DNA of 64,000 nucleotides from an uncultured virus (IMG/VR IMGVR_UViG_3300027847_002832) (taxonomy: Duplodnaviria; Heunggongvirae; Uroviricota; Caudoviricetes): the IMG/VR virus record IMGVR_UViG_3300027847_002832; one strand, given 5' to 3'. Below are positions 1,325-54,531 of this stretch, in pieces. The notes under the pieces are model-generated. The model did not search any database. It was not told where the DNA came from and saw only the letters and a list, made by a program, of their open reading frames with translations. Each line of letters begins with the position of its first letter. Position 1 is the stretch's first letter. A program made the position numbers and the translations under genes.

Positions 1325-2788
1325 TTAGATAATGAAATTCGCAATCGACATCCTTGCGTAGAATTTTGCTCCCTCTCGTAACAATTTTTTTCCGTACCGA
1401 GTAAGGATACCCTTTCTTGGGCAGAAGCTCTCTGGATCTAGTACCACTGGCGTTTGTGTCAGGGGTACATATGGACAGTAAAAATATCCCGAATCCATGT
1501 AAGAATCGCCTTTATAACCCATCAAAATCTGTCCCTGTGGGAACAGTGGGTCTTTATACAGACGCCATCTGTTGTTGATCGTTCCGACGTACTGAATACC
1601 CAACGATGAAGTGAAGGTTTCAGATGGTGCAGGAGCGAAACCAGCCGTAGCTGTTTCAAACACAGATGCAACTTCTGGAGAAGTAACAAGCCAGTTACAT
1701 CCGCCACGGAGGGTCTTACGATGAACTACGTTACTTACTTCAACGACCTTAACATAAAGAGACTCGTACTTCTCTTTAATGGTGTCGCCAAGTGCTGTAT
1801 TGAAGTCCCATACAGCGATTGTACCAGCGTTGTTACGCAAGTCAGTCAAAACTTCTCGGTCGATTTCCAAGTTGATTTCTTGTGCAAGCACAGCGGTCAA
1901 CTCAGCTTCGGCGTCGAGGTTATGTTGTGAACGAAGGTCTTGCTGTGCTTCGTAAGACCAGACAGCTTTAAGCTTTCTTGTCTTGGCAGCAATTTCTTCG
2001 GACTCGATGACCAAGTTAACTTCTGGCAAGTCTTGGTTGCATTCCATGTTGTACTCATAAGAGACAACGATGTGGTTTGCGGTAGACTGTGTTCCGTCCC
2101 ATTCAAGAACGATTTCACCAGTTACAACGTCAAGGCTTGAACCAGCAGTAACCGCAACGGCGTCTGGAGGTGTGCCAATAGCTGTGAAGGTGAATGTTCC
2201 GTCTTCAGCCACTACAAAAGTTTGGATAGCGACTGCACCGTCATAGACAGTACCAGTCATTGTGCCAGCCAAAACTGGGGTGTGCTCAAGTGGAGCGAAT
2301 ACAGAAGTTGAATCTCCACCAACATCAGTGCTGGAAACTTCATTTTGCACAAACTGGTGCGTGTAGAAGATTTCCAAGTTTCCGTCACCGGAAGCTAACT
2401 GCTGAAGTGAAGTAGCATCATCGCCGGGGAATCCGCCATTGAGGTCAGCACCTCTCATAGCTCCCTTGTTGGATGAGTATCGGAAACGCAGGTAGTAAAC
2501 CAAACCGGTTGGCCCAAGCAATGGCTGGACTGAAACGATCTTGTTTGCAATAAGCTGCGGGTAAATTCTTCGTACAAGCGGAATAGAAATTCGCTTGAAC
2601 TGAGCGATGTCGCCAGTGTCGGTCATGGCCTCGTTAATTAGACGCTGGTTTTCCAGCATAACGGCGGCTGTGGCTCTTTCGTAACGATTTGTAATACCGT
2701 GAAGCATTGACTTACCGTTAGAAAGTGGCTTCGACCATCTGGACTCAATCTCTCTTGCTTCGTTTAGATAACGTGCATTAAATGACAT
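1325..2788 (-). CDS. gp23: Major capsid protein, T4 gp23 family
   Basis: IPLVRRIYPQLIANKIVSVQPL-GPTGLVYYLRFRY, KTRKLKAVWSYEAQQDL, EINLEIDRE, GYFYCPYVPL, GILTRYG; located after protease and scaffold. Confidence 0.97.
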   Translation of the reverse strand: MSFNARYLNEAREIESRWSKPLSNGKSMLHGITNRYERATAAVMLENQRLINEAMTDTGDIAQFKRISIPLVRRIYPQLIANKIVSVQPLLGPTGLVYYLRFRYSSNKGAMRGADLNGGFPGDDATSLQQLASGDGNLEIFYTHQFVQNEVSSTDVGGDSTSVFAPLEHTPVLAGTMTGTVYDGAVAIQTFVVAEDGTFTFTAIGTPPDAVAVTAGSSLDVVTGEIVLEWDGTQSTANHIVVSYEYNMECNQDLPEVNLVIESEEIAAKTRKLKAVWSYEAQQDLRSQHNLDAEAELTAVLAQEINLEIDREVLTDLRNNAGTIAVWDFNTALGDTIKEKYESLYVKVVEVSNVVHRKTLRGGCNWLVTSPEVASVFETATAGFAPAPSETFTSSLGIQYVGTINNRWRLYKDPLFPQGQILMGYKGDSYMDSGYFYCPYVPLTQTPVVLDPESFCPRKGILTRYGKKLLREGAKFYARMSIANFII

Positions 2789-26884: not shown

Positions 26885-27120
26885 GATACTCCTTTCCTGC
26901 TTAATTTTCTGTTCAACCAATAATTTCCACATCTTGGATCTTTCGGCCAAACCTTTATGAATGTGGTCCACCATGAATGATCCATCTCCATCCAAACCAC
27001 TTGGTCTTTCTCAGGTGGTTCAACAAACCTATCCAACGACACTCTTCTGCTTCCTTTGCTGTAAAGCACAGCAGAGTCTTCGTCTACCCACAGAACATAT
27101 GCCGATTCAAATACCATCAA
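26881..27120 (-). CDS. Hypothetical protein
   Basis: Overlaps both neighbours in ATGA fashion. Confidence 0.6.
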   Translation of the reverse strand: MMVFESAYVLWVDEDSAVLYSKGSRRVSLDRFVEPPEKDQVVWMEMDHSWWTTFIKVWPKDPRCGNYWLNRKLSRKGVS

Positions 27121-27956
27121 AATCCTAGTTTGGTTAGGTCGCCATCAAAAGCGTCTTGTGCTTTAGATGTAGGAGTGTAGAAAGGACACATATTTCTGTA
27201 ATCACAAAATTTGCAGTGCCATCCTACTTTTCCCCACACTTGATCAGCGTCAGCTTCTCCAATCGTTATGTGAGAATTATGTAAATCTTTCTCGACATCT
27301 TCTAATGATTGTTCGCTGTACTGACAAGCGATGAGGTTTTCTCCCTCAAGATAAAAGAGTGCTGCTTTGATGTTTTCTGCTTTGATGTCGAACTCACGTT
27401 GAACAACTCGGGAGTACATTCTCAACTGCAAATCTGTTTTGACAGTATCTTTGTTGACTCTCCATTTTCCCTTTTTCGTTGTTTTGTAGTCGATGATGAA
27501 CGCTTTGCGATCAGCCCCTTCTCCTTTAATGATCAGACGGTCAAGAAAACCTTTTGCAAATTTTTCATTTGGGGCATCGAGATCGTAGTAGAAAGGATGT
27601 TCTGTAATGCCGTCTGTCCCAATTTTGTCTGTCAGATTCTTGACAGCTTTAAGATGTTTGGGAAACTTCTTTTCGTAGTCGGCTGGCATTTCTGAGATGG
27701 GGCACATGATCTCTTTTCCATCATGAACCTCGTATACGATCTTTCCTCGAAGCAAATCTTTTGCGATGTCGCCAATGTTGTCTTCGCCATTTCTTTGCAC
27801 ATAAACTTCAGCAATGCGGTGGACAACAGAGCCGTAAGTAAAGTAAAATGGCTCTTCGCCGGGTCGAGGAACTTTAAGATGGTATCTGAATTTGTACTGT
27901 TGGGCACAAGTATCGTAACATTTTTTGCGGCTGACGCTGATGTGGTTAATGATCAT
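27117..27956 (-). CDS. Cas4/RecB-like PD-(D/E)XK exonuclease with Fe-S cysteines
   Basis: N-terminal Cys, GFLDRL, IIDYKT, QLRMY, C-terminal CKFCDYRNMC. Confidence 0.9.
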   Translation of the reverse strand: MIINHISVSRKKCYDTCAQQYKFRYHLKVPRPGEEPFYFTYGSVVHRIAEVYVQRNGEDNIGDIAKDLLRGKIVYEVHDGKEIMCPISEMPADYEKKFPKHLKAVKNLTDKIGTDGITEHPFYYDLDAPNEKFAKGFLDRLIIKGEGADRKAFIIDYKTTKKGKWRVNKDTVKTDLQLRMYSRVVQREFDIKAENIKAALFYLEGENLIACQYSEQSLEDVEKDLHNSHITIGEADADQVWGKVGWHCKFCDYRNMCPFYTPTSKAQDAFDGDLTKLGF

Positions 27957-33601: not shown

Positions 33602-34624
33602 TTAAGGATTTCCTCCAGCATTTTCCGCTGCCACCAAGCACCCTTGGGCCACGGAGTAAAGAGGCTTCTCTGGCCGAATGACTTTACCAAGATCAGCAGA
33701 GATGCCTGCGCTGTGCAACATTTTGTCAAACAGCGTGTCAAATCCCGGAGGACTTGATGTTCCGCCAGCTACCACAATGTCAATTGGGCTATCAAGTCGT
33801 GCTTGTTTGTCTTTGTTTTCTTCAAGACCTTTTTTGATACCGCCAACCGTTCTTTCGATCATTAACTCGTATTGAGTTTTGATAGCACGCTCAACAAGAT
33901 TTTGAGGTTCGGCTCCCAGATCGATCTTCTCTTTCTCATGGTTAATGAAAGCAATGCTTTCGCCAGTTGCCTTGGCAGCTTGTTTGTCAATCCAGTCACC
34001 GGAGTTGACCAAAGCAAAGCTAAAGACTTCTGCACCATAGAGTGAGAAGGCTACGTTGACCATGCCTGCACCGCAAGAAATGCCAATGCCTGTAAACATC
34101 TTGTCAGCTAACTCAGAGTAAACTAGAGCCATGCCTTCGTTGATCGGTCGAGGGTCAACTTTCCAGCCTTCTTTTGTTTCAAAAGCATTGAAGATAGCTT
34201 CAAGAAGCTTTCTGTGATAATCGGCATCGGTCTCTTCGTTGATGGCATTAGCCGGTACTGAATAATAAAGAAGCTCTCCATCTTTGGAGACTTCATCTAG
34301 CAGACTGTGTATCATGATGTTCATGATTTGGAAAGCATCTTGTTCTTTCGGGTTTACGCATCCGTCTTTCATAGGACGTTTAAGATCGACCTTGTTCATG
34401 GTGTAAGCCATTTTCAAGGCAGCATCTCCAAGAGCGTAAGCCACATTTGCATCATCATTGCGGATCAAAGGCACGCCAGCCTGCTTCATCATGTTGAATA
34501 CGAAATCGTTATCCAACGGCATTTCCAAGAATGCGTTAACTTCTCTTTTGTAGGAGAAGTTAGACTCATCTGTGCGTTTGCAAACTACTAAATTATATGT
34601 TCCGATATCGGCTCCAATTGCCAT
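33602..34624 (-). CDS. Actin-fold ATPase (MreB/ParM/MamK-like superfamily)
   Basis: Phosphate-1 IGADIGTYN, connect-1 INEGMA, phosphate-2 GISCGAGMVN, adenosine VVAGGTS, connect-2 SVAQGCL. Confidence 0.85.
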   Translation of the reverse strand: MAIGADIGTYNLVVCKRTDESNFSYKREVNAFLEMPLDNDFVFNMMKQAGVPLIRNDDANVAYALGDAALKMAYTMNKVDLKRPMKDGCVNPKEQDAFQIMNIMIHSLLDEVSKDGELLYYSVPANAINEETDADYHRKLLEAIFNAFETKEGWKVDPRPINEGMALVYSELADKMFTGIGISCGAGMVNVAFSLYGAEVFSFALVNSGDWIDKQAAKATGESIAFINHEKEKIDLGAEPQNLVERAIKTQYELMIERTVGGIKKGLEENKDKQARLDSPIDIVVAGGTSSPPGFDTLFDKMLHSAGISADLGKVIRPEKPLYSVAQGCLVAAENAGGNP

Positions 34625-41140: not shown

Positions 41141-42607
41141 ATGTACCAAGGCAAAAATTATATCAACGGAGAATGGCGGGATGTAACTGAATCGTTTGAA
41201 ACAGTTAACCCCGCCACAGAAGAAGTTTATGGAACTTTTCCTAACAGAGTCGAAGAAGCAGGACTGGCAGTAAAAGCCGCTCGTAAATCTTTTGATTCAT
41301 GGAGAAAAGAAAGTCGAGTTAGAAGAGCAGAGTATTTTGATGTTCTTGCACAACTCATTAAGCGTGATCACGATAAGCTTAAAGATGCTATATCGATAGA
41401 GACAGGAAAGAATCTTAATGAGTCACATGCAGAAGTCATTGAAGCTCTCCATATGTGCCAGTTCGCCGCTGCTTCTGGACGAGAGGCATTCGGAACATGT
41501 GTGGCGTCCGAACTTCCTACGAAGGACGCATATGTCATTAGGAAGCCTAGAGGGGTTGTTGCTGTTATCTCTCCTTGGAACTTTCCTCTTGCTATCGGCT
41601 CTTTTTGGAGTTCTGCTCCTGCTCTCGTTGAGGGCAACACCGTTGTACACAAGCCATCTGAGCTTACTCCAATGGTCAACCAAATAGTCACTGAACTTTA
41701 TCATGAAGCTGGTTTCCCAGCAGGTGTTTTCAATCTTATACATGGTGAAGGTGCTGTTGGTGCTGCTCTAGTCAGAAGTGAAGTAGATGTTATTCTTTTC
41801 ACGGGATCGTCAGAAGTCGGTCAGGATATTAGAACACACTGTGCGTCTACTGATTCCAAAAGAACGTGTATTGAATGCGGTTCAAAGTCAGCAACTATTG
41901 TCTTTGATGATGGCGATATGGAATTGGCTCTTGACGCCGCTGTAGCATCTGCTTTCAAACTCTCTGGACAAAGATGTGTTTCGTCAGGACGCTTGATTGT
42001 CCAACGTAGCATCTTTGACAAGTTTGCAGAAGAATACACCAATAGAGTGTCTGCGCTTGTTACAGGCGATCCTTTCAAAGCTCCAGCCGCTTTCTATGGG
42101 CCGCTCATCAGCCACGAGCAAATGGACAAGGTAGAAGCTTTTAATCAACTTGTTCGTGAAGATAGCGATGCAGAAGTTCTTTTGAATGGTGGAAGACTTG
42201 ATCCTGATCCCGGATACTTCCTCACGCCGTTCGTCTATAAGTGCGAATGGGCCAGAGACAAGCCTTTCTTGTCTCAAGAGGTCTTCGGGCCTCATGTTGC
42301 GTTGATTCCTTTCGATGATCTGGACGATGCCATTAGAATTTACAATGATACAGATTATGGTCTTGCTTTAGGAATCGTCACAGATGACTTCCGTAAGCAC
42401 AGAAAAATCGCTCAAGAATGTATCACTGGTATGCTTTATGTCAACGGTGGTTCAATTGCAGCAGAATCTCATATTCCATTTTCTTCATGGAAGAAGAGTG
42501 GGTATGGTGCCAGTGCTGCGGGAACTTACAAAGCTGTTACTCACAGCATGTCCATAACGGTGAACTACGAAGAAGGAAAAGTGAGTTGGGCACAAGGAAT
42601 GGAGTAA
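41141..42607 (+). CDS. NAD(P)-dependent aldehyde dehydrogenase
   Basis: ISPWNFP, KPSE, FTGS, ECGSK, SGQRC, EVFGP; start ATG 41141 with GGAGG. Confidence 0.95.
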   Translation: MYQGKNYINGEWRDVTESFETVNPATEEVYGTFPNRVEEAGLAVKAARKSFDSWRKESRVRRAEYFDVLAQLIKRDHDKLKDAISIETGKNLNESHAEVIEALHMCQFAAASGREAFGTCVASELPTKDAYVIRKPRGVVAVISPWNFPLAIGSFWSSAPALVEGNTVVHKPSELTPMVNQIVTELYHEAGFPAGVFNLIHGEGAVGAALVRSEVDVILFTGSSEVGQDIRTHCASTDSKRTCIECGSKSATIVFDDGDMELALDAAVASAFKLSGQRCVSSGRLIVQRSIFDKFAEEYTNRVSALVTGDPFKAPAAFYGPLISHEQMDKVEAFNQLVREDSDAEVLLNGGRLDPDPGYFLTPFVYKCEWARDKPFLSQEVFGPHVALIPFDDLDDAIRIYNDTDYGLALGIVTDDFRKHRKIAQECITGMLYVNGGSIAAESHIPFSSWKKSGYGASAAGTYKAVTHSMSITVNYEEGKVSWAQGME

Positions 42608-42621
42608 GCATACATACTCGT

Positions 42622-42807
42622 ATGCCTGATACTCCATTTGGAATGCCGATATTCAATCCACATGATTTTCGTATCTGCGGTTGGGTGGAATCAGAAGATG
42701 TGATTCTTATTCACCGTGGAGACGAATATCATTATACGGATTTTTTAGGCGTAATTTTTCTTGATAAGCCGCCAAAAGATTTTGATTGGAGAAAGGAAGG
42801 ATTCTAG
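42622..42807 (+). CDS. Small protein ending in WRKEGF
   Basis: ORF after ALDH; C-terminus DFDWRKEGF. Confidence 0.55.
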   Translation: MPDTPFGMPIFNPHDFRICGWVESEDVILIHRGDEYHYTDFLGVIFLDKPPKDFDWRKEGF

Positions 42808-42815
42808 GAGGATAA

Positions 42816-43283
42816 TTGGAAATACATTTTACAGAACATGAAGATTTGATGAGAAGGCAAACTGTTATATCAGCATACACTCAAGTTGGTAACAGGCGTG
42901 TCCAATCTCGAATGTATGTTTCGTTAGATAACTACCGTCAAAATTACATAGACTCAGCATACCAATTGCTTAAAGATGAAGTGAGGCAAAGAGCTTTGAC
43001 AGAAATGAGGTCTCAACAGCATTACTCAAATAGAGATGCTGTGAGGGATTCAGACGATGCAAATGATGCACGTGAAGCTGCTATGACAGCATTGTTTGGA
43101 TTACCGGCTCGTAGAGTTGATGCCATGCCAGTTCCATTATATGATCTTCAAAATGGTCGTCCTGTGTTTCCGTTAGACCTAAACAGAGGGGCTTGGATAG
43201 AGAATTACAGATATTCAGAAAACAGTGGTGGCCGGGCGAAAATGACCAAGGATAAAGTGAACTGGTTGAAGGAGGGATTTTGA
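42816..43283 (+). CDS. Hypothetical protein ending in WLKEGF
   Basis: TTG start with AGGAGG RBS; C-terminus KVNWLKEGF. Confidence 0.65.
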   Translation: MEIHFTEHEDLMRRQTVISAYTQVGNRRVQSRMYVSLDNYRQNYIDSAYQLLKDEVRQRALTEMRSQQHYSNRDAVRDSDDANDAREAAMTALFGLPARRVDAMPVPLYDLQNGRPVFPLDLNRGAWIENYRYSENSGGRAKMTKDKVNWLKEGF

Positions 43284-43468
43284 CAGATCGTATATTGAAA
43301 GCAACATGGTCTCTTGAAGCCCAACAAGATTTAGAAGCGTGGCACGGTATTGCAATTGAAGAACTAACCCGTAATATAATAATAGACATGGATCGGGACT
43401 TCATACGATGGGCTAACATGGCGACTGTTGTTGAATCAACAGTCAATTGGAAGAAAGAAGGATTTTAA
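43280..43468 (+). CDS. Mini-protein carrying a gp23 capsid fragment, ending in WKKEGF
   Basis: RILKATWSLEAQQDL versus MCP RKLKAVWSYEAQQDL (12/15 identical); TTG start overlapping the previous stop. Confidence 0.7.
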   Translation: MTDRILKATWSLEAQQDLEAWHGIAIEELTRNIIIDMDRDFIRWANMATVVESTVNWKKEGF

Positions 43469-43469
43469 G

Positions 43470-44348
43470 ATGGATACAATCGGAATCATAGGACAAGGTT
43501 TTGTTGGGACAGCTATTTTCGAGGGAATGAAACACGCTTTCGAAATTTGGGCTTATGACATCAAAACAGGAGTCACAGGATGGATGGGCGGCAAGGGATT
43601 TGAGACAAGCACAGGATCAAGTGTTGAAAGTGGATTTAAGCAAATTCTTGCTAAATGCGACATCATTTTTGTTTGCCTTCCAACGCCCATGAACCCAGAT
43701 GGAACGTGTAATACAAAAATTGTGGAAGATGCTGTCAACATGCTTGATGAACTCAATCCCGGCGATCACAAAGTTATCGTGATCAAATCTACTGTGCCAC
43801 CGGGAACTACAGAAGGTCTTAATAAAACTTCTGGAGATTGGGTTTGCTTCAACCCTGAGTTCCTTACAGAGCGTACTTCTGTTGAGGATTTCAAGAACCA
43901 AGACAGAATCATCATAGGTGGACCACGAGAAGGTACTAACGTACTTAAAGCAATGTATGAAAAAGCATACCCAAACGTACCTGTCACTAAGACATCATCA
44001 ACCATTGCAGAACTCGTAAAGTACACGACTAATTGTTTTCTTGCTACAAAAGTTGCATTTGCTAACGAGGTTGCTCAAGTCTGTGATTCTTTAGATGAAG
44101 ATTATGACAAGGTTGTGGAATACGCCACTAAGGACAATCGACTGGGCAACTCACATTGGTCTGTTCCGGGGCCTGATGGCAAGAAAGGGTTTGGCGGCAG
44201 TTGTTTTCCAAAAGACCTTAACGCATTCATACAGATGGCAGGAGACCTTGATGTGTATTGTCATACTTTGCAAGGGGCATGGCAAACTAATTGTAAGGTT
44301 CGTCCAGAAAAAGATTGGGAACAACTTAAAGGCAGAGCGGTTACTTAA
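43470..44348 (+). CDS. UDP-glucose/GDP-mannose dehydrogenase family protein (short form)
   Basis: GQGFVG, CLPTP, IKSTVPPGTT, FNPEFL, AELVKY, GFGGSCFPKD. Confidence 0.9.
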   Translation: MDTIGIIGQGFVGTAIFEGMKHAFEIWAYDIKTGVTGWMGGKGFETSTGSSVESGFKQILAKCDIIFVCLPTPMNPDGTCNTKIVEDAVNMLDELNPGDHKVIVIKSTVPPGTTEGLNKTSGDWVCFNPEFLTERTSVEDFKNQDRIIIGGPREGTNVLKAMYEKAYPNVPVTKTSSTIAELVKYTTNCFLATKVAFANEVAQVCDSLDEDYDKVVEYATKDNRLGNSHWSVPGPDGKKGFGGSCFPKDLNAFIQMAGDLDVYCHTLQGAWQTNCKVRPEKDWEQLKGRAVT

Positions 44349-45089
44349 ATGGAACTTATATTAGTCACAACAACAACTGAAGACTGGAATAGTTTTGAAA
44401 GTGCAAAATCTTTTCAAGACTATGCTACATCCATAGGTTGGTGTCGTTCTACTAATCAAAGTTATGATATGTTTTTTGAAAGATTGCAGCAATGGGAAGA
44501 CAACCTGTCTCCTTCTTTCTTTGAAATTCGACATCGAATGAAAGAGATAGCTGAAAAAAATTGGGCAAGATTAGACTGCGAAATCTATCGTTCTGATAGA
44601 GGCAGTTATTTTAACAAAGACACCATCATAATTATTTCAGACGACGATGATTGGTACAATCCAGCAGTTGTAGAAGATGTCAAAGAGGCATTTAGAGAAA
44701 GAGATGACATCGATCTTATTTATTGGGATTGTTGGCAATACTCTACTTTCTCGGTTGAGAAATTCATCAAAAACAATTCTCTTATTGGAAGCAACTGCTT
44801 TGCTTTAAGAGGTGGATTTCATTGGAATTGTTATTCAGCAGGTGCTCACACCAGAGTATATGATAATTTCGATAAAGAAAAGATCATGCACCTTCCAAAC
44901 AAGGAGCTAAGCTTATGGAACGTACACTTGGCTTCTTTTAGCATGTTGCGTTCCATAGCAAAAGAAGACGGGATTGGCAAATTTGGCATTATATCTGATC
45001 AAAGAGCAGTCAGGCCCTCAAAGTTTGATTGGGCCGAAAAAGAAATTGAAGAACTTTACTGTTTGATGAGAAGTGTTAACTTTTCTTGA
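44349..45089 (+). CDS. Hypothetical protein, possible GT-A-like
   Basis: IIIISDDDDWY DxD-like motif; within the glycosylation cluster. Confidence 0.5.
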   Translation: MELILVTTTTEDWNSFESAKSFQDYATSIGWCRSTNQSYDMFFERLQQWEDNLSPSFFEIRHRMKEIAEKNWARLDCEIYRSDRGSYFNKDTIIIISDDDDWYNPAVVEDVKEAFRERDDIDLIYWDCWQYSTFSVEKFIKNNSLIGSNCFALRGGFHWNCYSAGAHTRVYDNFDKEKIMHLPNKELSLWNVHLASFSMLRSIAKEDGIGKFGIISDQRAVRPSKFDWAEKEIEELYCLMRSVNFS

Positions 45090-45408
45090 TTTTAACGCAG
45101 AATCGTGGAATGATGAATTCTCCTGAATCAACTTCAACATGAACTTTTTTGCCTTCTACGGACAAAACAGTTCCACCGTTTAGCTTAAATTCAGCAACTA
45201 ATTGCTCCGCATCATCATCACATTCTATTTTTTCAATAAGCTTGCCTTCGCTTACTTTTGATTTGACTCTATTGCCAATATATTTTTCATTAGGGTCTGC
45301 CTGAAAATTAAAGAAATCAGACATTCCATTCTGGTCTGAAAACCAGTCTTTGAAATCAGATATTGATCTGTATTTAGGTTGTTGTTGTTGTTGTTGTTGT
45401 TGTTCCAT
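45076..45408 (-). CDS. Small protein with poly-Gln N-terminus
   Basis: AAGGAG RBS before MEQQQ; SH3-like beta-rich C-terminus. Confidence 0.6.
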   Translation of the reverse strand: MEQQQQQQQQPKYRSISDFKDWFSDQNGMSDFFNFQADPNEKYIGNRVKSKVSEGKLIEKIECDDDAEQLVAEFKLNGGTVLSVEGKKVHVEVDSGEFIIPRFCVKIKKS

Positions 45409-46291
45409 TTGTGACTCCTTTCTCCTCCGATAGTTCGTCTTCAAAGAAGCGTCTTGCTTCTTCCTTACATTTTATATAGGAAGCATTAACGTATTTCGAC
45501 CCATTCGAATAGTCTGCCACTTCTACTATGGCGTCTTCTTGATTTTTAATCCAATACAAATTGGCATCTATTATTTCTTGGCTTCTTAAATGTTGTGGGT
45601 AACTCCAGAGTCCGTTGTCTAACTGAACTGCGAAATCCCTTTCTTTTTCAAAGGAATCGTCACAGCACATGAGCATCAGCTTTTTTACTTTGAATTGATA
45701 TGCAAGACCTATGGCCGCACATATAGGGTTTCTATAATCATCTATGTAATATCCAGATTTCCTGCTTGTTCCAAAACTATCTTCCGGTGATGGCTCGTAA
45801 ACATATACGTCTCCTTTGTATTTGTTTAAGAATTCGTGATTTGTTCTTGATGAAGCCAAGCAAGTAGGATAATATTGAATATCTTTTTTTGGCAGATATC
45901 TTAAACATTCTTTATAAGGGTTGTTTGCAATGTATCCATTGATGCTTCTTCTGTTTTCTGCATCAATTTTAGGAGACATCAATTCCCAAAATCTTAAAGC
46001 TCCATTTGTGGTCAGTATTGCAACATCTTTTGGGAAGTCTTGCATGTCATGATGTATTTTGCTAAAATTAAACCCATCAGACACGATCACTATCTTGTCA
46101 AATATGAGCAATTCATCTGAAACTTGAGGATACTTCACATTTCTTGAAGTATTGGAAAACACTTCTTGATAGTCTTCCTTTGTAAACATGTAGTTCAAAG
46201 AAAGAGGTTTAACATTCTTATCAAAATTGCGCACCCACAAGTCCCCAGCACGGATATATTCGTTATTCGTCGAGTGGGGTTTTATGTGCAT
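45374..46291 (-). CDS. Hypothetical protein, Maf/DUF115-like glycosyltransferase-related
   Basis: IVIVSDG..F, ILTTNGAL, AAIGLAYQF.VKKLMLMCCD. Confidence 0.55.
   Translation of the reverse strand: MHIKPHSTNNEYIRAGDLWVRNFDKNVKPLSLNYMFTKEDYQEVFSNTSRNVKYPQVSDELLIFDKIVIVSDGFNFSKIHHDMQDFPKDVAILTTNGALRFWELMSPKIDAENRRSINGYIANNPYKECLRYLPKKDIQYYPTCLASSRTNHEFLNKYKGDVYVYEPSPEDSFGTSRKSGYYIDDYRNPICAAIGLAYQFKVKKLMLMCCDDSFEKERDFAVQLDNGLWSYPQHLRSQEIIDANLYWIKNQEDAIVEVADYSNGSKYVNASYIKCKEEARRFFEDELSEEKGVTNGTTTTTTTTT
45378..45404. repeat. (GTT)9 trinucleotide microsatellite
   Basis: Seen directly; lies in the overlap of two minus-strand ORFs. Confidence 0.9.
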
Positions 46292-52933: not shown

Positions 52934-53551
52934 ATGGGACTTTTAGATGGTGCTTGGGGTTATTTGTCAGGTCCAATGGAATATGTTGCTGATCATGGTG
53001 TTGAATGGCGTCGAAAATTCACACGTTTGGTGTATGAAGCTGAACTTGATGTTGCTTTAATTGATCCGACAGACAAGCCGGGCGGCAAAGACATCAAGAT
53101 GGGCGAAGACAAAGAAACGCAAGTTGCTTTGCAAGCCAATGGTAAGTTTAAGGAATTACAACAATATGTAGGAAAATACAGAAGATTTGACCTACGATTT
53201 GTTGATCAATCTGATTTTTCAGTTGCAGTGATAGACCCCACTGTCCCACAGTGGGGAACTGGCAATGAAGTCTACATGGGGGAAGATCAACATAAACCTG
53301 CATTCTTCATCTGTGAAGGTGGTTTGTACAATCTTCCTCGCTGGTTATTTGACGTTATTGAAAAGATCACCGAGGATGACCCTAATAAGGCTCTCAGTGA
53401 AACCAACGTCTATGAGTCGGTGGAAGATGTCATTGCAGAATTGGTGCTCTTAGACAGCGGACAGAAGCCTCTCAGCGATGAATGGGTTCTAGTCAGGCGT
53501 GAGATTGAGCGTAGGGCCGAAGAGAACAAGAAAAAATACTCAAAACCCTAA
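52934..53551 (+). CDS. Nucleoside 2-deoxyribosyltransferase-like protein
   Basis: YLSGPME...WR, DLRFVDQSD, GTGNE. Confidence 0.75.
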   Translation: MGLLDGAWGYLSGPMEYVADHGVEWRRKFTRLVYEAELDVALIDPTDKPGGKDIKMGEDKETQVALQANGKFKELQQYVGKYRRFDLRFVDQSDFSVAVIDPTVPQWGTGNEVYMGEDQHKPAFFICEGGLYNLPRWLFDVIEKITEDDPNKALSETNVYESVEDVIAELVLLDSGQKPLSDEWVLVRREIERRAEENKKKYSKP

Positions 53552-54001
53552 TTGCTTCCAATCTAATTTTTGCATTGGAGGCAATTGTCTGGGATGACGG
53601 GTAACAGTTATCCTTGGCACAGAAGCATCTCTAAATCTCCAAGTGGCTTCAAGTCTGACAGGCTCGTCTTCATGTGCAGAGTAAGACATGCTTACAAGTG
53701 TTGTATCGTGATATTCCACCGAGTGGCCTGTGCCTAGACCTACTTTAATTGTAGGTCTGGGATTTATTGGCACAGCAACATTTGGACTAACATGATGTAT
53801 TGCTGTTTCTATTAGCTCATTCACTTCTGGAAATGTAAAATGCAAATCTCCAAATCTCATTTGTTGAACCGCCAGCGGCGGCTCCATTCCTGATATTTCT
53901 GCTTCCCATTCTAATTCAAATGATTCAACTGGAAGTCTTTCTGTGATAGCAGTTTCTTCCTGAAACATTTGAAAGGTTAAATCAAAACCTGCCAAAGTCA
54001 T
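53540..54001 (-). CDS. Hypothetical protein ending in WKQLGF
   Basis: ATGA coupling to the upstream gene; C-terminus KLDWKQLGF. Confidence 0.6.
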   Translation of the reverse strand: MTLAGFDLTFQMFQEETAITERLPVESFELEWEAEISGMEPPLAVQQMRFGDLHFTFPEVNELIETAIHHVSPNVAVPINPRPTIKVGLGTGHSVEYHDTTLVSMSYSAHEDEPVRLEATWRFRDASVPRITVTRHPRQLPPMQKLDWKQLGF

Positions 54002-54531
54002 ATCACCCTCATTCCTACTATTCCCTTAAATTTAGCATCATGTTCTAAAGCAGCAGCAGTCCACAAGAACTTTGCCATTTCAAAATCATTCATTCCTTGC
54101 TTTTCCAACGCACCTTCTGTGAAGTTTCCAACCTTCTTAAAGAAGTCCCTGTTTATTAGAACTCCATTGAATGATCCAGATATGAAATCATAGCGTTTTT
54201 CTACAACTGGAAACAAGATGTCTTTTTCACTTGTTGCAAATGTTGCAAACTTTCTTTCTAAGAAAGCAGGAATTCTACTTCCTGCGAACATGATAAATCC
54301 CCATTCATGTTTAACACGCTTCATGCCAACATTGACAAGACTGGTGATTGTGTCTTTGCCCTTCCAGATAGGACAATGCTCTTTCATTTCCTTGACTTCT
54401 TTAGGAGTTGTGTCTCCCGGTACGACAGCGATGCACTCTCTGTCATATGAGTGATGACGTACACCTCCTACGCTATTCCTTAAACCCCCAGAATTTCTGT
54501 CGGGGCAAAGGATGATAAATCCTACATCCAT
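53998..54531 (-). CDS. Hypothetical protein, degenerate GT-A-like
   Basis: GFIILC, SLVNVGMKR..HEW, LINRDFFKKVGNF resemble a GT2 scaffold. Confidence 0.5.
   Translation of the reverse strand: MDVGFIILCPDRNSGGLRNSVGGVRHHSYDRECIAVVPGDTTPKEVKEMKEHCPIWKGKDTITSLVNVGMKRVKHEWGFIMFAGSRIPAFLERKFATFATSEKDILFPVVEKRYDFISGSFNGVLINRDFFKKVGNFTEGALEKQGMNDFEMAKFLWTAAALEHDAKFKGIVGMRVI

Follow-up and report, generated by a model that had tools for sequence, protein, structure and literature searches.

A 64,000-nucleotide stretch of DNA from an uncultured virus of the Caudoviricetes (IMG/VR record IMGVR_UViG_3300027847_002832), here called the window, encodes three consecutive small proteins that carry different bodies and end in one short tail, W-x-K-E-G-F followed directly by the stop codon. 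This tail is real, under selection, and widespread in one phage clade and beyond, and it is without a match in the literature searched. Judged from sequence, it looks like a handle for one partner protein, undescribed so far. Neither the tail (including the form WKKEGF) nor tagged capsid fragments were found described in a search of openly accessible article text, and the accessible parts of PMC7824862, PMC12373910, PMC12409349 and PMC10981675 likewise describe neither.

Tagged genes in the window

The window comes from a huge phage of the T4-like type, with the portal, protease, scaffold and major capsid genes at its left end. Its capsid protein shares 76.7% identity with the capsid of LR756511.1, a phage of 595 kb, and 90% with that of the 459-kb contig G003. 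The features discussed below are collected in Table 1. Counted from the Trp codon to the stop, the three tails lie at 42787-42807, 43263-43283 and 43448-43468 on the plus strand, with a fourth at 53540-53560 on the minus strand, just where the preliminary description had placed them. The start assigned to ORF1, at 42622, is backed by a 63-codon open frame of the orthologue in L016/L017.

Table 1. Coordinates of the tagged genes, their tails and the neighbouring or source genes in the window
Feature	Position	Strand	Description
ORF1	42622..42807	+	61 aa, ends FDWRKEGF; body strongly conserved and of no known family
Tail 1	42781..42807	+	8 codons + TAG
ORF2	42816..43283	+	155 aa; N-terminal beta3-alpha domain (residues 1-70), low-confidence rest including a diverged capsid piece, ends VNWLKEGF
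ORF2 residues 87-141	43074..43238	+	Diverged copy of major capsid residues 60-112 (T4 Gol-equivalent region)
Tail 2	43257..43283	+	8 codons + TGA; overlaps TTG start of ORF3, contains AAGGAGG upstream of that start
ORF3	43280..43468	+	62 aa; capsid piece (residues 4-54) + VNWKKEGF
Tail 3	43442..43468	+	8 codons + TAA
ORF4	53540..54001	-	153 aa, no known family, variant tail LDWKQLGF
T4-type major capsid gene, intact	1325..2788	-	Source family of the pieces; residues 60-112 at ~2453-2611, residues 271-314 at ~1847-1978
Aldehyde dehydrogenase gene	41141..42607	+	Left flank of the variable tagged-gene slot, conserved
UDP-glucose/GDP-mannose dehydrogenase-family gene	43470..44348	+	Right flank of the slot, conserved

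The pattern W-x-K-E-G-F-stop matches the window three times, against a mean of 0.03 in 100 dinucleotide shuffles, none of which reached three; residue frequencies predict 0.0003 WxxEGF ends among the 81 window ORFs. Pairwise, the three genes share 15-18 of 24 nucleotides inside the tails, compared with background levels of 12, 12 and 21 of 57 upstream and 4 of 15 downstream. Contrary to the earlier claim, the bodies are not wholly unrelated, since ORF2 and ORF3 both hold pieces, though different ones, of the major capsid protein. Relative to the L017 orthologues, dN/dS is 0.03 for ORF1, 0.36 for ORF2 and 0.40 for ORF3, without a single non-synonymous change in the last eight codons, and by this measure all three genes are under purifying selection; the near-identical records L047 and L069 are not independent support and were excluded from the count. 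The tails persist while the bodies diverge to 47% identity.

The slot between the aldehyde dehydrogenase and sugar dehydrogenase genes holds one to three tagged genes with differing bodies in six relatives. Three are present in the window, L017 and L064, two stand beside the aldehyde dehydrogenase gene in L288, and one longer capsid-piece gene fills the slot in L028, L053 and L031. The slot is a variable cassette site with a constant tail. The fourth tail, KLDWKQLGF at the end of ORF4, is a credible variant lacking the Glu, since the G003 gene after the orthologue of 53998-54531 ends VNWSLLGF, though its body has no BLAST similarity to ORF4. A Cas4-like exonuclease at 27117-27956 (-), which ends DLTKLGF, is not counted as tagged, as its G003 orthologue extends beyond the equivalent residues.

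Three RNA runs contained small shares. A 154-nt contig from one of them, X1, matches 42646-42799 without mismatch, although DNA carry-over is possible, and covers neither ORF2 nor ORF3; a promoter and terminator scan gave no more than the shuffle level. The best structural match to the ORF2 model (Z 7.5, rmsd 2.1 over 71 residues) is LptE-like, a common arrangement, and no viral structure matched at E 0.001; the C-terminal half and the tail are modelled at low confidence. Homology of the ORF2 N-terminal domain to the N-terminal domains in L028, L053 and L033 was rejected (hhalign probability 0.2).

Some further genes of the window and of G003 deserve mention in their own right. The product of 45076-45444 (-) in the window begins with a poly-Gln run, after which come KYRSISD and a segment resembling the capsid-targeting sequence (CTS) of T-even phages; it is the sole match to KYRSI[DS] in five proteomes, and the motif lies near its N-terminus. 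In G003, an Acb1-like anti-CBASS gene (L453:14387-14905) lies directly upstream of the portal gene, and L452:15617-16627 encodes a volactin (actin-like protein), of which window gene 33602-34624 (-), similar in size and in the same region, is probably the orthologue.

Spread of the tail and level of selection

In IMG/VR, the pattern with the Asn/Asp position is found before a stop in 54 stretches (29 before TAA/TAG and 25 before TGA) and before a Tyr codon in 2, near-identical contigs each being counted. Raw counts without that position are not enriched (87 stop against 77 Tyr stretches), and many of these matches lie in frames of <40 codons. Within five clade proteomes, WxxEGF closes 15 ORFs and lies inside the protein in two further cases, so that the strict C-terminal position claimed at the outset holds. 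Metagenomes contain at least 125 stretches, and among the matches listed 109 of the 141 distinct ends in WxxEGF-stop belong to frames of at least 40 codons. The 137 distinct tagged ORFs, a set chosen on Glu before Gly-Phe, fall into 101 BLAST clusters, 87 of them singletons, which bears out the modular body-plus-tail design first suggested. Asn or Asp is present in 29 of 35 tails outside the seeding patterns, giving the consensus [VIH]-[ND]-W-x-[KQ]-E-G-F. The residues before the tail are enriched in Lys (2.7-fold), Pro (1.7-fold) and Glu (1.6-fold), forming a linker. A profile built from the tail alignment retrieved one match from 1.84 billion proteins, itself another tagged ORF.

Distribution within the clade is uneven. 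G002 has eight pattern matches in 158 kb against one control match, and G003 (91% complete) has seven tagged ORFs, all small proteins without known function, whose endings drift to DGF, FGF and LGF. G415 has two tagged ORFs and G413 one strict tail; no strict match was found in G411, G412 or G414, no tail in LR756511.1, and no WxxxGF-stop match in two contigs of the clade, each 135-137 kb long. The tail is missing from core structural and replication genes, and none of the sigma-like and other core proteins of G002 and G003 ends in it. A membrane helix is predicted in 12 of 154 tagged and 130 of 1684 untagged ORFs, and is thus not enriched among carriers. In a tandem array in L224/L225, 18 tagged paralogues of 145-220 aa with 12-28% identity follow each other. 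The model of an array protein (pLDDT 72.6) shows an alpha/beta fold of two lobes that resembles no known structure clearly (best Z 4.9), with no viral match at E 0.001. Separately, in a phage group unrelated to the clade and with 52% GC (L013, L032, L051, L066, L068, L071, L077), a DnaB helicase ends KWKKEGF; lacking the Asn/Asp, this ending may have arisen by chance or be a separate use of the tail.

Across the 137 tails, the Gly is encoded by each of its four codons (55/40/24/18) and the Phe by either of its two (79/58), and the Glu is GAA in 16 of the 18 array genes, where GAG would be optimal for a Shine-Dalgarno sequence. Because all wobble positions vary, selection acts on the peptide rather than on the DNA or a ribosome-binding site, as the preliminary description had argued. 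It had also named two findings that would speak against it, a want of C-terminal enrichment and an explanation by Shine-Dalgarno sequences alone; instead, the tail is enriched at C-termini and the Shine-Dalgarno sequence is insufficient to account for it. It is accordingly very improbable, and largely refuted, that the capsid pieces described below are relics of recombination or homing and the tail region a nucleic-acid signal such as a Shine-Dalgarno sequence, a frameshift site or a cassette junction. The existence of untagged capsid pieces would suit this explanation, as would the overlap of the stop with the next ATG in 61 of 137 tagged ORFs and the fact that two of the three window tails could serve also as ribosome-binding sites; yet a core Shine-Dalgarno sequence occurs in just 14 of 137 tails, slip-compatible codons in 40 and 79 of 137, conservation does not extend beyond the start of the next gene, and dN/dS of the bodies is below 1. 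Frameshifting or read-through at the tail was ruled out, there being no common slippery context, and the 'RRFLM' at array N-termini is the upstream tail translated in the next frame. The overlaps with the next ATG indicate that the tail often also joins one gene to the next, an arrangement that may favour the growth of arrays. A contrast is offered by G003 at 289923-357613 (L446-L449, plus strand), where twelve genes end in [DN]-T-N-stop on a near-fixed T-R-A-T-A-C-Y-A-A-C-T-A-R string, with AAC in 12/12, TAG in 10/12 and a Shine-Dalgarno sequence often next. These fixed codons have the look of a nucleic-acid motif, perhaps a DNA- or RNA-level junction motif acting as a promoter or processing site, unlike the tail, whose codons follow genome usage.

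Capsid pieces among the tagged bodies

The preliminary description had taken at least one body to be copied from a virion protein, and two of the three window proteins in fact contain capsid pieces. ORF3 matches Pfam Gp23 (PF07068) at positions 148-205 of 376 with an E-value of 1.6e-6, and its piece is 45% identical to residues 271-314 of the window's own capsid protein. For ORF2, hhalign of its family against 66 clade capsids gave a probability of 95.9 and an E-value of 6e-9, pairing residues 87-141 with capsid residues 60-112. Its homologues P0010 and P0011 match the capsid HMM at 5e-15 and 6e-7, while window ORF2 by itself has no match to that HMM; the segment is near-perfect in P0010 and drifted in the window. 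Such drift past HMM detection fits relaxed mimicry and counts against the adaptor proposal set out below. ORF1 was rejected as a capsid piece (hhalign probability 0.2). The window pieces span ~45-55 residues and are not full-length HK97-fold subunits, the intact gene being that at 1325-2788.

Capsid residues 58-113 align to mature T4 gp23 residues 20-75 and so cover the Gol peptide, if this corresponds, as we assume, to residues 94-122 of the gp23 precursor. Gol comprises 29 residues within the first quarter of gp23, the most conserved part of that protein; it binds EF-Tu and triggers Lit according to the accessible text of PMC3014915.

The association extends beyond the window. Using a profile of the 66 clade capsids (domain E <0.01), pieces were detected in 19 of the 154 tagged ORFs and, among 1684 small ORFs lacking the tail, in 7, an odds ratio of 34 that is inflated because the tagged set was seeded by motif search and includes orthologues. 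The pieces derive from four separate capsid regions, one of them the Gol-equivalent region, and one tagged body matches the tail sheath. In a Pfam and PHROGs search with 147 of the 154 tagged ORFs, which omitted near-duplicates and two doubtful frames, Gp23 was the sole recurring family. About seven in eight tagged bodies (~88%) have no detectable virion origin and no annotation. LR756511.1 accounts for five of the seven untagged pieces (at 125926, 195953, 306665, 430481 and 588014), which lie in small ORFs with no tail and no common ending.

Virion-derived bodies raise the question of whether the tail targets phage assembly (prohead core, scaffold or portal), either for head packaging as in T4 internal proteins or to poison the assembly of competitors with capsid pieces. 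The design, with diverse bodies and one targeting sequence, is that of the T-even internal proteins (accessible part of PMC3012670), capsid pieces and one tail-sheath piece are among the bodies, and the CTS-like leaders at N-termini in the clade have a core similar to that of the tail, [DN]-W-x-K-E. Such leaders, however, occur in 26/1128, 17/707 and 9/231 clade ORFs and in 0/154 tagged ORFs, a difference of moderate weight, as ~4 were expected and many tagged ORFs are cut at locus edges. The tail is also found on membrane proteins (the 12 carriers with a membrane helix), in unrelated phages and in prophage-like elements. We therefore regard assembly targeting as unlikely, the tail as an unlikely head-packaging signal, and the assembly site, one of the hubs first suggested, as disfavoured.

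A simpler role would be that of a cis-acting degron, which would make early or toxic phage proteins short-lived and involve no adaptor function. The free hydrophobic C-terminus on a disordered linker, in soluble and membrane proteins alike, and its absence from core structural and replication genes are what such a role would predict. The tail nevertheless conserves five positions over eight residues, more than typical non-polar C-degrons need, and a degron leaves the frequent capsid-piece bodies unexplained; we give this role slightly less credence than assembly targeting.

Carriers, candidate partner and known systems

Among 94 tagged loci, 39 lack a clade homologue, many of them being only 0.6 kb long. 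L019, from a small phage of different gene content, carries two tails, and the genes around them look like terminase subunits of a small phage; L187 has three tails in succession, and G009 has two in a prophage-like stretch. Bacterial genomes gave 93 matches, nine of which close frames of at least 40 codons, three of the nine in named planctomycetes, one of them in a finished Novipirellula chromosome between a replication-like and an HNH-like gene. Within 401 Planctomycetota genomes, the tail was found in 3, against 5 control matches (TAA/TGA only), and no conserved protein of the host was seen to end in this way. The tail is not a general host feature. Its presence in unrelated phages and planctomycete prophage-like DNA, taken with this, points to a host partner, as a motif common to unrelated mobile elements would best be read by a host protein. 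The phage host itself is probably a planctomycete, which is a lean only, resting on one gene and a few prophage-like matches: the ClpX of G003 matched 26 of 30 genomes tested, a panel drawn from motif matches, and the best four were Novipirellula, Pirellulaceae, Schlesneria and Planctomycetota by a small margin (449-460 bits versus 436).

We propose that the tail would act as a short linear docking motif with a free carboxyl end, [VIH]-[ND]-W-x-[KQ]-E-G-F-COOH, on a flexible Lys/Pro/Glu linker. It would probably form one helical turn with Trp and Phe exposed as a hydrophobic plug; helix-capping rules, with an Asn/Asp cap and a Gly cap packing Phe on Trp, fit such a turn. The tail would dock on one conserved protein of the (probably planctomycete) host, and the phage would join it to a fast-changing library of bodies serving as baits or binders, the capsid pieces capturing host sensors or factors that recognise the capsid. 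The likeliest hub would be an AAA+ protease system of the Clp type, with each tagged protein acting as an adaptor that hands over its catch for removal. That these bait-plus-handle adaptors bring targets to a host AAA+ protease is a tentative but plausible reading; the binding, the host location of the hub, its identity as a protease and the bait function are what we infer from the patterns above.

The lean towards a protease comes from the adaptor-like architecture (a Lys/Pro/Glu linker before the terminal motif and the low-confidence C-terminal half of the ORF2 model), from variant tails ending LGF or FGF in ORF4 and G003, which resemble the loop by which ClpX docks on ClpP (IGF/LGF in the phage and host proteins), from the clade's own ClpP and ClpX, and from the precedent of Gp53 discussed below. 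Two observations count against it. ClpP-docking loops require Ile or Leu before Gly-Phe, where the commonest tail has Glu and only a few variants have Leu or Phe, and LR756511.1 has ClpP and ClpX but no tails; with its five capsid pieces, the latter genome also shows that such pieces occur without the handle. One co-folding job, which combined a tail of 30 residues (92-row alignment), three ClpP chains of a planctomycete and two zinc-binding domains of ClpX, scored 0.00 without controls and favours neither side. The clade encodes a divergent ClpP, a ClpX whose loop reads IGF and an AAA ATPase that has IGF/LGF close to its end, in G003 at 115435-116103, 250065-251381 and 123975-126065 and in LR756511.1 at 193145-194503 and 340155-341219, and the G003-type ClpP family has 58 loci in IMG/VR.

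The evidence for a terminal, host-read, peptide-level motif applies equally to a non-protease host hub, such as a chaperone, RNA polymerase, a ribosome or elongation factor, or the replication clamp, on which the tail would localise or stabilise the bodies. That the Gol region itself binds EF-Tu (accessible text of PMC3014915) fits this alternative, and so would the DnaB ending noted above, if it is not chance, given its missing Asn/Asp; the tailless sigma-like and other core proteins of G002 and G003 weigh against it, and we consider it rather unlikely, though less so than the degron or assembly targeting. Returning to the protease adaptor, a bolder form of it, which we hold to be doubtful, is that planctomycete phages carry a targeted-degradation library, in which immune-trigger pieces (capsid regions including Gol, and tail sheath) and other binders share one eight-residue host-protease handle, sensors that grab the bait are destroyed, and lineages converge with different handles.

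If the tail recruits one host machine, it would be a new bacterial short linear motif, and >100 phage proteins could be recognised by a simple pattern as acting in a single pathway. Evolution would then have drawn, in the capsid pieces, a map of the capsid surfaces read by host immunity, and a protease handle would provide an eight-residue tool for targeted degradation in planctomycetes. Even without a protease link, selected capsid-piece mini-genes with a common tail are unmatched in the literature searched.

Several known systems share single features with the tail. T4 gp43, gp55 and gp33 carry sliding-clamp-binding tails, which are likewise short, aromatic and C-terminal on unrelated phage proteins; these, however, sit on core replication and transcription proteins, whereas none of the annotated core proteins of G003 is tagged and its polymerase and sigma proteins have other endings. 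The ClpP-docking IGF/LGF loops of ClpX share the xGF ending, most closely with the LGF/FGF variants of ORF4 and G003, but the loop is internal to an ATPase, while the tail is a free C-terminus with an invariant Trp and mostly Glu before Gly-Phe. SspB is a protease adaptor with a binder, a linker and a short docking element, the order predicted here, although the tail does not match the SspB tail. SPO1 Gp53, a phage adaptor for host ClpCP (accessible part of PMC6873191), provides an example of phage steering of host proteolysis. SspB and Gp53 are single proteins, in contrast to ~100 unrelated bodies with one tail and a Clp docking that is predicted.

Capsid proteins are known immune triggers, as exemplified by the Gol peptide and Lit (accessible text of PMC3014915), and phages make decoys of immune triggers, such as DSAD1 for DSR2 and Ocr (accessible part of PMC12409349). 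One class of tagged bodies similarly copies the Gol-equivalent region, whereas these inhibitors stand alone without a common tail and, in the parts of the sources available, none is a capsid fragment. The closest design is that of the T-even internal proteins. Their CTS is an N-terminal leader cut off by the prohead protease. They too are highly diverse small proteins with one short common peptide, and their bodies act against host defence (accessible part of PMC3012670). The tail differs in being C-terminal, in sharing its genomes with a distinct class of CTS-like leaders, and in its presence on membrane proteins and in unrelated phages.
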